From a virus (Duplodnaviria > Heunggongvirae > Uroviricota > Caudoviricetes): a DNA stretch of 30,585 bases. Positions 2,559-30,585 of the stretch are shown piece after piece. Position 1 is the stretch's first letter. Each line of letters starts with the position of its first letter. Position numbers and translations under genes: made by a program. The notes under the pieces are model-generated. The model was given only the letters and a program-made list of their open reading frames with translations, was not told the origin of the DNA and did not search any database. The stretch is from positions 1 to 30,585 of IMG/VR virus record IMGVR_UViG_2728369593_000008; one strand, 5' to 3'.

Positions 2559-3126
2559 GTGATTTTCGCCGAAGATAGCGACATGAAGCTTGCATTTTTC
2601 AAAAAATATGGATAAGATTTTCTCAACGATGGGCTTTGTATGTCTGCCGTTGAGAATCTTCAAGAACCCGCCATCAAGTAGGTATTTTGTTATCCAAATA
2701 TCAGTTCTGAATAGTCTTAGTAGCTTCTTGATAAACATAAAAAAGTACTTGCTTTGAATGGCCGCCTTTTAGACAGGGCAGAGAGTACGATTGGTTGAAA
2801 AAAGCATAGTTCTTGGCGGTAGGTTTTATTTTAGTCTCTCATCTATGTATCTAGGGAAGTATGTGATTACCTTCAGGAATTATATCCTGTGTTTCATATG
2901 ATTACATGGGAGCAAGGGACGCCAACTTTATAACAATTCTTATGCCCAGCCACTATATATAGATAAAAAAAATCCGCATCATCCCGTATATTGTTTTTGA
3001 TTTCTTTTTGCTATATATGTTGTGTTTTTTATGCCTTTATTGCATATGTGATTAATGTGCTTGTTGTTATATTCAATACGATGCCAAGGGATTTGGGACG
3101 TGTATATCCAATAAATTGGCAGATTT
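2559..3126 (+). promoter_or_regulatory. ~570-bp AT-rich non-coding region downstream of Q; expected site of the late promoter/qut element and/or a promoter for the cargo cassette
   Basis: No convincing ORF; candidate -35/-10 pair TTGCAT-17 bp-TAAGAT near 2591-2619; inverted repeat CTCAACG/CGTTGAG at 2622-2654; A/T tracts and TATATA runs throughout. Confidence 0.3.
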
Positions 3127-25887: not shown

Positions 25888-26331
25888 ATGGAAATGGTTT
25901 ATAGCGCCTCAAAAAATAGTTTTTTCGCTAAAAATGATGTGGCGAAATATGAACAGGCCGGATGGGAACTTGCTGATGTTGTCGAAGTGACATATGACAC
26001 TTACCTGGAATTTATTGAAGACAGAACGTTGCAAGGGAAAGTACGCATCGCGGGTGATGATGGCCTTCCCACCTGGGGGGAAATTCCACCGCCAACTCAT
26101 GAGGAACAAATTGCCGCAGCCGAACTGGAAAAGCAGCAATTGATTAATCAGGTCAACGAATACATAAACAGTAAGCAATGGCCTGGTAAAGCAGCGATTG
26201 GTCGCCTAAAAGGTGAGGAACTGGCGCAATATAATTTGTGGCTGGATTATCTGGACGCACTGGAGCTGGTCGATACTTCCGGTGCGCCAGATATTGAATG
26301 GCCTACGCCTCCGGCAGTTCAGGCCAGATGA
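25888..26331 (+). CDS. Tail fibre assembly protein (Tfa, expressed orientation)
   Basis: 147 aa; C-terminus ...LDYLDALELVDTSGAPDIEWPTPP is the Tfa motif and is shared with the inverted copy. Confidence 0.8.
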   Translation: MEMVYSASKNSFFAKNDVAKYEQAGWELADVVEVTYDTYLEFIEDRTLQGKVRIAGDDGLPTWGEIPPPTHEEQIAAAELEKQQLINQVNEYINSKQWPGKAAIGRLKGEELAQYNLWLDYLDALELVDTSGAPDIEWPTPPAVQAR

Positions 26332-26896
26332 CGTCCGGCGCTGTGCTGGTATCTGTTGCCGTCACCGCGTCAATATAATCCAGCACAGCGTTAAGTCGGG
26401 TGTTTTCTGGCTGCGTCAGCTTCCGCCCGGCCTGTAATTTCAGTTGAATCAGACTGATGGAAGCCATTGCAGCATCAATCAGCGACTGGCGCTGTGCTTC
26501 TGCCGCTTCTACTGCGGCGCTATGCTGTGCCTCGGTATCCGTCACCCATTTCTCACCATCCCATTTATCGTATGGCGTTAACGGTGAAAGCGTGACATAA
26601 CCGTCTTTGATGGCACCGATATAATCCACTGTAACAGCTGCGCCATTTTCAGTTGAGTAAACGGTCTCATTGCGATGGTCTTCTTCATGGCTCCATCCCT
26701 TACCCGTAAATACTGCCACTTTTCCCGGAATGTTTTCGCTCGGGTCAATACCAGTGGAACAGGCGGGCATACTTACGCCAGTATTAATATATTCATCAGA
26801 CCAGCCGGTATATTCATACGTTACTGCATTATAATAAAAACAACGCATATCGCCCGGCACTGTAGCCAGCCCATTTTCATCAAAAACAGGTTTCAT
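26303..26896 (-). CDS. Alternative tail fibre assembly protein (Tfa', silent orientation)
   Basis: 197 aa on the - strand, converging on tfa; C-terminus ...LDYIDAVTATDTSTAPDVIWPELPEA matches the Tfa motif. Confidence 0.8.
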   Translation of the reverse strand: MKPVFDENGLATVPGDMRCFYYNAVTYEYTGWSDEYINTGVSMPACSTGIDPSENIPGKVAVFTGKGWSHEEDHRNETVYSTENGAAVTVDYIGAIKDGYVTLSPLTPYDKWDGEKWVTDTEAQHSAAVEAAEAQRQSLIDAAMASISLIQLKLQAGRKLTQPENTRLNAVLDYIDAVTATDTSTAPDVIWPELPEA

Positions 26897-27425
26897 TATT
26901 TAGCCCTCACCAGAAAGTTAAATGCAATATTTCGTGGACGGGTTTCTGTACCTACATTTCCACTAATTTCACCATAACGTTTAACACTACGAGAGCTAAG
27001 AGCTCGTAGTGAGGAAGGCACCTTAAGACCGGGTTCGTCCGTTTTAACTATTCCCCCGTCACCATATGTAGCCAGTATTCCTGGGTTTACTCCTTCCCGT
27101 GCACTTCCTGCGGCAAGCCCGCCCCCGTCCACAATTCCATATTGTGTGCATGATCCATAATTGTGTGTGATTGCCCTGAAAGTAGGGTACGTCCGACATC
27201 AATCCCGCGCCCGTCATCCCAGATACGAATGAAATCACCGCGTGCGTCAGGTAATGCCAGCGCCGGAAACACTTTCGCCAGCACAGGGTAATCAGTGGCA
27301 GAGAATTTCGCGCCGTTGAACTTCAAAAACACCATACTGGACCAGCTATCGATTACGGTATCTGGCATTGCAGCGGACGGCCAGAAGAACGGAACGCCAA
27401 TAGCTGGAGCTCCTTCTCCCAAACC
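26896..27425 (-). pseudogene. Alternative tail-fibre variable C-terminal segment; promoterless and apparently frameshifted
   Basis: Two overlapping - strand ORFs in different frames (27087..27422 and 26896..27132); the first begins exactly at the recombination site (LGEGAPAIG...GRGIDVGR...HTIMDHAHN), the second ends ...ETRPRNIAFNFLVRAK; frame break near 27090-27150. Confidence 0.55.
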
Positions 27426-27439
27426 AACCTTTCAAATAT
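27414..27439 (+). repeat. Right recombination site of the invertible segment (inverted relative to the left site)
   Basis: TTCTCCCAAACC-AA-CCTTTCAAATAT; the inner half-site matches the left site's inner half 11/12 in inverted orientation; the outer half is degenerate. Confidence 0.6.
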
Positions 27440-27498
27440 TTTTCTGAATCAGGTGATATTTCGCCTCTTCTCCTGTTTTTACAACAGGAGAAGCACTC

Positions 27499-28062
27499 AT
27501 GATTTACGGGTATGTTCGTGTATCAACAAATCATCAGGATACAGAGTTGCAACGTCTTGCACTTGAGTCAGCTGGCTGTGAGCGAATTTATGAAGAATAT
27601 GCCAGTGGCAGAACAGCTAATCGCCCTGTGTTAAAGGAATTAATTACGGTGATGAAAAGTGGAGATGAGTTGATTGTCTGGAAGTTAGATCGGATAGGGA
27701 GAAATGTGCTGCATGCGCTATTGATGTTTCAAAATCTGCACGAAAAAGGTGTTAATTTTCGGAGTATTACAGATGGCGTAGACCTGAAAACAGCAAGTGG
27801 TCGCTATAATTTCCGTAATATTCTTTCTGCTGCGCAGTATGAATCTGATTTGAATAGCGAGCGAACTTTAGCTGGTTTGGCTATTGCCAGATCCAAAGGC
27901 CGGATTGGTGGGCGTAGACCGAAGTTTAGCGACGAGCAGTGGCAACAGATGGGAGCGCTCATAGCGGCAGGGAAATCACGGCGTTATGTTGCACGTATCT
28001 ATAACGTTGGGCTATCAACCCTATATAAACGATTTCCTGTTACTGGCATTCAAACGAAATAA
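27499..28062 (+). CDS. Serine-recombinase DNA invertase (Pin/Gin/Hin/Cin family)
   Basis: N-terminus MIYGYVRVSTNHQDTELQR with the catalytic Ser in the YxRVST motif; ...WKLDRIGRN...; C-terminal HTH (GLSTLYKRF); closely resembles e14 Pin as I recall it. Confidence 0.9.
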   Translation: MIYGYVRVSTNHQDTELQRLALESAGCERIYEEYASGRTANRPVLKELITVMKSGDELIVWKLDRIGRNVLHALLMFQNLHEKGVNFRSITDGVDLKTASGRYNFRNILSAAQYESDLNSERTLAGLAIARSKGRIGGRRPKFSDEQWQQMGALIAAGKSRRYVARIYNVGLSTLYKRFPVTGIQTK

Positions 28063-28205: not shown

Positions 28206-28454
28206 TTAGTGAACAAACCACTCGTCAGCAGATTCCCAGGTATCTTTCAGAGTCTCCTGAACAAAAGTTTTTGCAGAATCCTTATCTGTGGTGCGTGTAA
28301 CAGAAAGGCCATCGTTGCTGGTGGCTTTTACGATCACCTCTACATCGTCATAACGTTTACTGATGCGTCGGGTTAATTCTTCCTTTAACGCATCCACAGC
28401 ACCGGTTGGCATTTTAGTCATTTTTTCTTTGGCTATGCAGATTTCAATACGCAT
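28206..28454 (-). CDS. DinI-family protein (DNA-damage-inducible protein I-like)
   Basis: 82 aa; [11 protein letters not shown]...[11 protein letters not shown]...[14 protein letters not shown] aligns with E. coli DinI as I recall it. Confidence 0.8.
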
Positions 28455-28515: not shown

Positions 28516-29613
28516 TCAAGAGGTCTTATTTCTGCTCCTTTGGAGCTCTTCAAAACGATTATGTAAAGATTTCGGATACAGTTCGGTATATACCTGCCAT
28601 AGCACGTTTAATGAACGATGCCCTGTAACCTGGGCGACTTCCTCAATACTAAAACCAGCCTCAAATAAGCGACTTGCCCCTTCTCTACGCAAATCATGGT
28701 ATCGCAGATCTTTAATACCTAATTTGCTTCTTACCCTCTGGAATCCCGCAGTAACAGAAGTGCTGTTATATGGAAAAATGAATTCTGATTTTTTGGGTTG
28801 TCGTTGGACGATATCCCAGGCTTCCCCAAGCAAGGCTACTTTCATATGGTTGCCTTCCTTTTTACGTGGATCTTTCCTGTCTCTTACGAGTATGGATTTT
28901 TGTTCCTGATCGAGATCCTCCCATCGTAATCGGCATACTTCACCGATTCGCATACATGACCACACAGAAAATTTGAGGATATCAACGAACGGAATTTTTG
29001 AGCATTTATGTGTAGATCGTTGTTGAAGACCTTCAATGAGCATGTCCAGTTCATCAGATGCCGGTCTACGATTACGACGATTTGATTTACCAATTAAACC
29101 AAGTTTAAGTAGATATGGACGAGCGGCTTTTGCTGGGTTTGATGTGTAATTAATTCCATATACAGGTTTGGCAGCATCCAGAACACTGCCAAGATAACTA
29201 ACATCGTGGCTAACTGTAGCTGGACCTGCACCAGCGTTGTTTCTTAGCCTGCAATGTTCAATTACGTCATTTTCTGTCAGTTCAGATAGTTTGATCGCGG
29301 AGATGTCACTATCCATAAGCAGTTCCAGCACATATCTTTTAGTACGGCCTGCTTTACCTCCGGCATTTGGGTCATTTAAATATTTGTGTAGTAAGTCACG
29401 GACTGTAAGTCCGTCAACTGCATTTGATGATGGAATGCCATATAGATCTAATTCCATCACTTTCTGTGTGCCCCATGTTTTGGCATGAGCATGTTTAGGG
29501 AATGTTTTGCTTTCCCTGTAAGTGATAACACCTTTTTCTTTGATAATCACATTACAGCGATAGCGTGGTGTGCCATCGGATTTTAGTCGTTTCTCTATGT
29601 TATAGTACGCCAT
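28516..29613 (-). CDS. int: Tyrosine integrase (dusA-associated integrase type)
   Basis: 365 aa; C-terminal catalytic region with HDLRREGASRL...VTGHRSLNVLWQVYTELY (His/Arg/Tyr of the tyrosine-recombinase fold); adjacent to the dusA 5' end. Confidence 0.9.
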   Translation of the reverse strand: MAYYNIEKRLKSDGTPRYRCNVIIKEKGVITYRESKTFPKHAHAKTWGTQKVMELDLYGIPSSNAVDGLTVRDLLHKYLNDPNAGGKAGRTKRYVLELLMDSDISAIKLSELTENDVIEHCRLRNNAGAGPATVSHDVSYLGSVLDAAKPVYGINYTSNPAKAARPYLLKLGLIGKSNRRNRRPASDELDMLIEGLQQRSTHKCSKIPFVDILKFSVWSCMRIGEVCRLRWEDLDQEQKSILVRDRKDPRKKEGNHMKVALLGEAWDIVQRQPKKSEFIFPYNSTSVTAGFQRVRSKLGIKDLRYHDLRREGASRLFEAGFSIEEVAQVTGHRSLNVLWQVYTELYPKSLHNRFEELQRSRNKTS

Positions 29614-29701
29614 TACACGACCTCGTTATTTCGGGTTCCCATAAAACGTGGGAACCTGTGCGGGAACCTAACGCGAGAAAAATAGCCTGAAATGTTCAAA
29701 A

Positions 29702-30585
29702 ATGCACGATAATCATGAAACACAAAAAATTAATCAAACCAGCGTGATGCCTGAAAAAACTGGTGTTTACTGGAATTCTCGGTTTAGCATTGCTCCTATG
29801 CTTGACTGGACGGACAGACATTGCCGTTATTTCTTGCGTCTGCTTTCCCGCAATACGTTGCTGTATACCGAAATGGTGACCACAGGGGCGATTATTCACG
29901 GTAAAGGTGATTACCTGGCGTACAGTGAAGAAGAACATCCGGTAGCGTTGCAACTCGGGGGTAGCGATCCGGCGGCGCTGGCACAGTGTGCGAAGCTGGC
30001 AGAAGCGCGTGGATACGATGAGATCAACCTGAATGTCGGCTGCCCGTCTGACCGGGTGCAGAACGGCATGTTTGGTGCGTGTCTGATGGGTAATGCGCAG
30101 CTGGTTGCCGACTGCGTGAAAGCGATGCGCGATGTGGTGTCGATTCCGGTGACGGTGAAAACGCGTATTGGCATCGATGATCAGGACAGCTATGAATTTC
30201 TCTGCGATTTCATCAACACCGTTTCCGGCAAAGGTGAGTGTGAGATGTTCATCATCCACGCACGTAAAGCCTGGCTTTCTGGGTTAAGTCCGAAAGAAAA
30301 CCGTGAGATCCCGCCGCTCGATTATCCGCGTGTGTATCAACTGAAGCGTGACTTTCCGCATCTGACGATGTCGATTAACGGTGGTATCAAGTCGCTGGAA
30401 GAAGCTAAAGCGCATTTGCAACATATGGATGGCGTGATGGTCGGGCGCGAGGCGTATCAGAATCCGGGTATTCTGGCGGCGGTAGACCGAGAGATTTTTG
30501 GTTCCTCGGATACTGATGCTGATCCGGTGGCGGTAGTGCGCGCCATGTATCCGTACATTGAGCGTGAACTCAGCCAGGGTACGTA
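29702..30585 (+). CDS. dusA: tRNA-dihydrouridine synthase A, 3' partial (host gene, runs off the window)
   Basis: In-frame translation [44 protein letters not shown]...[11 protein letters not shown]...[31 protein letters not shown] matches E. coli DusA. Not in the ORF track because it has no stop in the window; the true start may be the in-frame ATG at 29747. Confidence 0.9.

Follow-up and report, generated by a model that had tools for sequence, protein, structure and literature searches.

Integration of mobile elements into dusA is well described, and the dusA-associated integrases were defined by Farrugia et al. 2015, who showed that the dusA 5' end of a lysogen comes from the element (PMC4482086). 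Balasubramanian et al. 2019 reported that phage 1720a-02 integrates 100 bp into dusA at a seven-base core, that it carries an in-frame phage dusA' ORF and that attP formation is int-dependent, and they assigned its integrase to the Farrugia family (PMC6328086). Excision as a circle with restoration of the native dusA gene has been observed experimentally both for 1720a-02 (PMC6328086) and for other members of the family (PMC4482086). Rivard et al. 2021 (PMC8409611) identified the PrtN-like protein RdfN as the excision factor of dusA-specific integrases, and showed that the element gives dusA a new promoter and a new N-terminus.

The DNA analysed here (the window; 30,585 nucleotides of IMG/VR record IMGVR_UViG_2728369593_000008) spans roughly the right 29.8 kb of a prophage, and its right end is very likely the attR site of a ~40-kb temperate phage with an SfI/SfII-like myovirus structural module, inserted into codons 33-35 of dusA, with a lambda-Int-like integrase and a surrogate dusA start. 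Because integration of 1720a-02 into dusA was shown in 2019 and the integrase family was described in 2015, integration into dusA at this locus is not new, having been reported even for the identical integrase and attP, and on its own it matters little, as one more lysogen in a well-described system. The interest lies in what accompanies it, namely a five-site map of attP in which the repeated motif covaries with the N-terminal domain of the integrase, and a likely mobile-element origin of the common E. coli dusA start.

The junction is compact. The dusA-specific tyrosine integrase gene (28516-29613, - strand; 365 aa) was recognised as an open reading frame with a match to Pfam Phage_integrase; the last base of its start codon is 29613, and immediately downstream is a DinI-like gene (28206-28454, - strand; Pfam DinI). 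An 88-bp spacer (29614-29701) separates int from dusA, lies within the P arm of attP, is identical in sequence in the attP sites of mEp460 and SKA5, and contains the int ribosome-binding site (GAGG) together with three candidate arm-type sites. The phage-supplied dusA 5' end follows (29702-29797, + strand) and comprises 32 codons beginning with the ATG at 29702-29704; mEp460 and SKA5 also carry it as free phages, and in their genomes it bears the annotation of a 123-nt 'tRNA-dihydrouridine' ORF. The crossover core ATGCTTGA (29798-29805, + strand) encodes the M-L-D of APMLDWTD, is the sole block common to attP, attB, attL and attR, and forms the start of a ~21-bp semi-conserved att repeat. From codon 36 onward (29806-30585, + strand) the gene is host dusA, near-identical to that of ATCC 25922 and K-12, and its frame runs off the end of the window. 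From MLDWTD on, the protein is 100% identical to DusA of both K-12 and ATCC 25922 (262 aa), and the nucleotide identity of positions 29798-30585 is 99.2% to ATCC 25922 dusA and 96.6% to K-12. To the left of the core, the N-terminus differs from that of K-12 (MHGNSEMQKINQTSAMPEKTDVHWSGRFSVAP) in 9 of 32 residues (81% nucleotide identity over 96 nt), and comparison of the sequences shows it to be unrelated to the ATCC 25922 5' end. The 99.2% match to ATCC 25922 and the T variant of the core indicate that the host has a B2-like dusA background.

The closest relatives of the module are in 1720a-02 (Phi-stx2dact, KF030445), whose integrase is 100% identical over 364 aa with 99.7% nucleotide identity across the module, and in mEp460 (98-99% and 97% respectively); both share with the window the P arm, the phage dusA' ORF, the core and the linked dinI, and the published 1720a-02 attP primer GGGTTCCCATAAAACGTGGG (PMC6328086) corresponds to window positions 29633-29652. 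The int-dinI pair is found in mEp460, 1720a-02, and loci of Cronobacter and Serratia. Beyond the module these phages differ: 1720a-02 and mEp460 are lambdoid siphoviruses (one with Stx2), whereas the window has an SfI/SfII-like contractile-tail module, as does SKA5, which also shares an invertible tail-fibre segment. We note that the int-dinI-attP module thereby sits on unrelated backbones, the lambda-like siphoviruses (gpJ tail) being represented by the FDAARGOS_1300 prophage and mEp460, and the SfI/SfII-like type by the window (1-28000) and SKA5. Judged by sequence comparison, the integration module is a mobile cassette. The probable invertible segment of the window (25888-28062) contains a resolvase-family DNA invertase gene (27499-28062) adjoining two opposed tail-fibre assembly genes (25888-26331, + strand, and 26303-26896, - strand) and a partial tail-fibre C-terminus (27087-27422, - strand); no long crossover repeats were found around this segment with the search settings used. 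A locus in Cronobacter sakazakii (GCA_016076815.1) encodes a DusA with exactly the 32-residue N-terminus of the window, preceded by a 365-aa integrase gene and dinI, which indicates that the int module integrates outside Escherichia too.

More widely, we retrieved 52 loci whose integrases are related to this one (44-99% identity), and in 32 of these 52 homologous loci from other genera dusA lies directly upstream. The locus has the organisation of the described family, with no difference in kind: int is divergent from the dusA 5' end at a distance of 88 bp; repeats of ~21 bp lie in the APMLDWTD-coding region, attL being judged from EC-07 and FDAARGOS_1300; and the element provides an in-frame replacement of the dusA 5' end. 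The PrtN-like RDF that the family encodes across attP would lie at the prophage end outside the window. Homology to the family is likewise evident from the 32/52 loci at dusA and the 100% identity to the 1720a-02 integrase, a comparison that rested on 1720a-02 and the 52 loci. The ICE SXT/R391, which inserts into the 5' end of prfC, differs in integrase family, target gene and type of element.

Pfam Phage_integrase spans residues 189-346 of the integrase, corresponding to the catalytic domain, and in an alignment of 60 homologues R222, H332 and Y342 are invariant, with H306 and R309 nearly so. No arm-binding domain was identified in the integrase by Pfam, NCBIfam or PDB sequence searches. The AlphaFold model (mean pLDDT 86) has three domains, an N-domain (residues 2-58), a core-binding domain (71-171) and a catalytic domain (186-364), with a flexible linker between the N-domain helix and the core-binding domain. 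The N-domain is predicted to have a beta3-alpha fold, with strands at 2-10, 16-26 and 29-38 packed on a helix at 41-58 (pLDDT ~90), and full-length lambda Int chains align end to end with the integrase over 357-372 columns.

The three candidate arm-type sites in the spacer are copies of GGGAACC: P-a (29634-29640, - strand) is inverted and has a counterpart in the same place in diverged loci, and P-b (29650-29656, + strand) and P-c (29662-29668, + strand) are direct and form a tandem pair with 12-bp spacing, P-c being assigned from the motif and from the layout in relatives. The total number of copies in the window is unremarkable (5 observed vs 3.5 expected); the window-wide probability of finding three of them within 35 nt is about 3e-4 (Poisson estimate). 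In the attP of mEp460 the P-arm pair GTGGGAACCTGTGCGGGAACC is matched by GTGGGAGCCTATTGGGAACC in the P' arm, 199 bp away, and five GGGA(A/G)CC copies in all start at -164 (inverted), -148, -136, +51 and +62 relative to the first base of the core. Two attP variants from E. coli diverge directly after the final P' copy, which fits that copy as the functional edge of attP. The preliminary description had recognised two direct and one inverted copy in the spacer, correctly apart from 8-nt intervals that were each about one base off, and had put them forward as candidate arm-type integrase sites or int promoter elements; the arm-type suggestion gains comparative support from the P' copies and from a layout that covaries among relatives.

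That layout was assessed in the first 80 nt upstream of int in 32 diverged dusA-linked loci, using shuffled sequences as controls. A tandem pair spaced by 11-12 bp (12 in all but one) together with an inverted copy is present in 21 of the 32 loci, compared with 8 of 3200 shuffles, and the motif itself differs by lineage: GGGAACC in Escherichia, Kosakonia, Phytobacter and Pluralibacter; GGGGTGC in Izhakiella, Mixta, several Xenorhabdus and Sodalis; GGTGTAC in another group of Xenorhabdus and in Plesiomonas; GGTGTCC in Rosenbergiella, Proteus and Aeromonas; and GGATACC in Shewanella. Where the attP of a phage is intact or can be reconstructed, the motif of its lineage is repeated as a tandem pair 45-70 bp past the core, as with two copies of GGGGTGCT in Yersinia YeP1, GGGGTGCT and GGTGTCCT in Morganella IME1369_02, GGGGTTCT and GGGGTCCT in Klebsiella Kp4882-1, and two copies of GTAGCAA in both Burkholderia BcepIL02 and Pseudomonas JBD90. 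Residues 5, 7, 21-24 and 29-33 of Int covary with the motif class and not with the host genus, even inside one host genus, and in the AlphaFold model they are placed in the three N-terminal strands. We propose that the GGGAACC repeats are most likely arm-type sites of the integrase, and that Int is most likely the protein that binds them. Klebsiella phage Kp4882-1, whose integrase is 52% identical, has the tandem layout on both arms (GGGGTGCT and GGGGTTCT/GGGGTCCT), and because no dusA-like sequence was found in its attachment region this relative appears to use another target.

Any promoter or operator of int has to lie in the region occupied by the three spacer copies, 20-55 nt before the int start codon, and the copies could instead be operator or promoter elements for int (or dusA) bound by another phage regulator or by RdfN; in a prophage int is severed from the early operon and requires a promoter of its own, and Pint of a related island is active by itself (PMC8409611). 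We consider this an unlikely explanation of the repeats, as the motif pair is found again on the opposite arm, ~50-70 bp past the core and far from any int promoter, in six independent lineages with their own motifs, and the motif class follows the sequence of the Int N-domain. A regulatory role for int may coexist with an arm-site role, the two not being mutually exclusive. It is still less probable that the inverted and first direct copies act as an RNA or DNA hairpin in the int/dusA leader, with a function in attenuation, processing or stability. A stem of 10-11 bp is predicted (-24.5 kcal/mol, z = -1.95) and lineage changes on both of its arms would resemble compensatory changes, but the z-score is of marginal strength, since 11 of 200 shuffles fold equally well, and no Rfam family matches or comes near threshold; since the third copy at a fixed 12-bp spacing and the two P' copies are left unexplained, a pure hairpin role seems very unlikely.

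With the repeats taken as arm-type sites, both arms of attP carry repeated sites that are distinct from the core, as expected of a lambda-Int-type system, and the resemblance to lambda extends to the predicted three-domain fold of the integrase, an attP of ~240 bp, arm sites ~130-165 bp from the core on one side and 50-70 bp on the other, and an IHF-like site between the core and the P' sites. This last is a single one-mismatch match to the IHF consensus at +28 from the core, there being no exact match in attP. The module departs from lambda in that no sequence relationship between the N-domains is detectable, the arm motif is different, int and the RDF are on opposite sides of attP, and the P arm doubles as the coding 5' end, and as the predicted promoter, of a host gene. 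The term arm-type site is absent from Farrugia et al. 2015 (PMC4482086), and such sites are not mentioned in the available portions of Rivard et al. 2021 (PMC8409611); the covarying five-site layout may therefore be an undescribed detail.

Alignment of attR (the window) with attP (mEp460 and SKA5), attL (EC-07 and FDAARGOS_1300) and the empty attB sites of a K-12 derivative and ATCC 25922 shows that attP consists of the left part of attR and the right part of attL, and attB of the left part of attL and the right part of attR, with only ATGCTYGA, inside dusA, common to all four. This is clean four-way site-specific recombination at ATGCTYGA in dusA, and the window to the left of the core is phage DNA throughout, with the start codon and the 32 codons of dusA included. 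A perfect inverted repeat (TCCTAT-GCTCG-ATAGGA) brackets the core in attP, and imperfect similarity between attP and attB continues for ~20 bp rightward of the core, which fits the published 21-bp semi-conserved repeat (PMC4482086). In both lysogens, EC-07 with a K-12-like and FDAARGOS_1300 with a B2-like background, the displaced native dusA 5' end is found at attL, and in EC-07 this orphan is labelled in RefSeq as a truncated tRNA-dihydrouridine synthase ~39.6 kb from dusA. In a megablast search of phage genomes, int, the spacer and the dusA 5' end were matched in 1720a-02, mEp460, SKA5, Lys8385Vzw and others, each match ending at window positions 29802-29807. Among 5426 complete E. coli genomes the dusA part is matched in every one (5426/5426), and int with the window 5' end in 742; in genomes without the int junction the match begins either just before the ATG (~94% identity) or at 29789 (98-99%), and in the sampled matches the window-type 5' end is always accompanied by the integrase.

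Although the resident dusA 5' ends of E. coli are of two strongly differing kinds, there is next to no likelihood that the 5' end in the window is ordinary host allelic variation with an integrase adjacent by chance or attached elsewhere, a reading refuted by the attP alignment and by phage-genome matches that end at the core, as the 5' end and spacer occur verbatim in free phages, the displaced host 5' end sits at the other end of the prophage, and the window-type 5' end was sampled only together with the integrase.

These alignments bear out the view, advanced in the preliminary description, of dusA-targeted integration with a surrogate 5' end. Its distance of 88 bp between int and the dusA frame is exact (29614-29701); its interval of 29614-29800 captures the junction, with the core (29798-29805) at and just past the end of that interval; and its account of ~20 divergent codons followed by a close match to K-12 holds as to the pattern (9/32 residues differ, the rest being 100% identical), the phage part extending to 32 codons. 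It had further proposed that alignment with a prophage-free dusA allele would locate the attR core, which it does, at 29798-29805, and had named as grounds for rejection a window-type 5' end in prophage-free strains with no duplicated core at the other prophage end; sampled matches have that 5' end only with the integrase, and the duplicated core is seen in EC-07 and FDAARGOS_1300. The attL of this prophage lies outside the window, in which a search for attL or P' arm sequence gave just one chance match with two mismatches. In the source genome attL would be expected to comprise a native dusA 5' end of the short B2-like type, ATGCTCGA, and then TAGGATGTACCG...GGGAGCCTATTGGGAACC.

In B2-like hosts the cores are not identical, attB being ATGCTTGA and attP ATGCTCGA, and attL retains the phage C while attR has the host T (window 29803; FDAARGOS_1300 locus ~47240; ATCC 25922 locus 3015). 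Strand exchange consequently either tolerates this mismatch in the 8-bp core or takes place to the left of it.

We envisage that the catalytic and core-binding domains of Int would act at the ATGCTYGA core, with the N-terminal beta3-alpha domain most likely binding the GGGA(A/G)CC arm-type sites. The stretch of P arm from these sites to the core is the surrogate dusA start, providing 32 codons and probably a promoter. Integration joins codons 1-32 of the phage in frame to the host gene from codon 33 on, DusA being kept whole by this fusion, and strands the native dusA 5' end as an orphan at attL. Excision should need RdfN, a PrtN-like directionality factor whose gene would be on the far side of attP, at the opposite end of the prophage; PrtN-family genes are present near attL in EC-07 and FDAARGOS_1300 and beside attP in mEp460, these being counterparts in other genomes of the prophage end beyond this window.

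Because the prophage leaves nothing host-derived upstream of dusA, the promoter of the chimeric gene must be phage DNA, and an element-supplied dusA promoter has been shown for a related island (PMC8409611). A strict scan found no sigma-70 promoter in the 88-bp spacer. By its match to the consensus, TGTTATAGT (29598-29606, + strand), antisense to int codons 3-5, is a candidate extended -10 element for chimeric dusA, and a profile of P arms picks out TGnTATAGT elements like it ahead of the native dusA of ATCC 25922 and K-12, facing dusA at ~2907-2915 of the ATCC 25922 locus and ~1412-1420 of the K-12 derivative locus. The position of the promoter is something we infer, as is the present-day activity of this prophage, and TGTTATAGT is a consensus-level lead, confounded in that the integrase has a conserved MAYY start. 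The DNA around the element-supplied start, AAAATGCACGAAAAT (window 29699-29713, encoding M-H-E/G/D/Q-N), is conserved across genera, as is an A-rich block, GATAAAGAAAAAATA, before the dusA start; both are conserved far more than the codons that follow.

The DusA proteins of Enterobacterales fall into two N-terminal classes, a short class with 14-19 residues before MLDWTD and a long class with exactly 32. The short class follows host relationships, and the long class usually starts MH.N. Short-type starts include MPAESHTVYPAYRF in ATCC 25922, MMSESTPTAFAAHRF in Klebsiella, MTSTSRNAFPAHRF in Cronobacter, and MQPETQSSAFPAYRF at a locus presumed from its zur/TraF_2 neighbourhood to be Salmonella, and the short type of E. 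coli (MPAESHTVYPAYRF...) resembles those of Salmonella, Citrobacter-like, Klebsiella and Cronobacter genomes. An integrase gene is directly upstream in 4/4 context look-ups of long-type DusA and in 0/2 of the short type, and every long MH.N DusA sampled in other genera has either an integrase or a decayed integrase start directly upstream. DusA of K-12 (MHGNSEMQ..., 32 residues) is of the long type, without an integrase. The preliminary description had used this K-12 N-terminus as its prophage-free reference, a choice that does not stand since K-12 itself falls in the element-supplied class and the host of the window has the other, B2-like, background. Decay of such elements can be seen at other loci: in Salmonella bongori (locus 2880-3110) a relic upstream of dusA retains an integrase start with an in-frame stop and two copies of GGGAGCC, one inverted and the other direct, and the ATG of its element-type dusA has become AAG, the annotated protein beginning further in; a locus of S. 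enterica subsp. diarizonae retains only ~30 integrase codons.

Complete E. coli genomes split exactly into those with the K-12-type 5' end (4303/5426) and those with the short type (1123/5426). The 5' ends compared are at 1504-1599 of the K-12 derivative locus, 2956-3009 of the ATCC 25922 locus and 29702-29797 of the window. From the core on, K-12 and ATCC 25922 are 96.8% identical, every codon just to the left of the core differs, and synonymous-site similarity between the K-12 and short alleles disappears completely, exactly at the att core. Between zur and dusA K-12 also has an additional ~1.7 kb, within which lies a frameshifted DUF2713 gene that we take, from the K-12 map, to be yjbL/yjbM. 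We think it probable that the K-12 DusA start is not ancestral, and that it is the fixed fossil of an old dusA-integrating element, which suggests that in ~79% of E. coli genomes the start of dusA is a fossil derived from an element. The support for this reading comes from the coding 5' end, from the break at the core and from the pattern seen across relatives, as tblastn and blastn searches for a remnant of the integrase ahead of K-12 dusA matched nothing but the coding 5' end, and no arm-site relics were found between zur and dusA; nor was an orphan B2-type 5' end found in K-12. An nhmmer profile of 24 P arms matched just the TATGnTATAGTA element in K-12, which we do not take as homology: because the profile also matched the ATCC 25922 intergenic region twice, once facing zur, matches of the TATGnTATAGTA type are read as promoter-like extended -10 sequences. 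Rivard et al. 2021 remarked that the N-terminus supplied by a Vibrio island is 'of identical length' to that of K-12, which they took to be native (PMC8409611).

The pairing of repeat motif with N-domain sequence constitutes a natural data set for the recognition code of the predicted arm-binding domain, and the five-site, ~240-bp attP map of the enterobacterial dusA integrases can guide the construction of minimal attP sites and swaps of specificity. If the K-12 dusA start is a fossil of the kind we propose, then the N-terminus and promoter that have been studied in K-12 derive from a mobile element, with a bearing on how DusA expression and N-terminal numbering are read, and the gene would be an example of a host permanently adopting a gene start supplied by an element.
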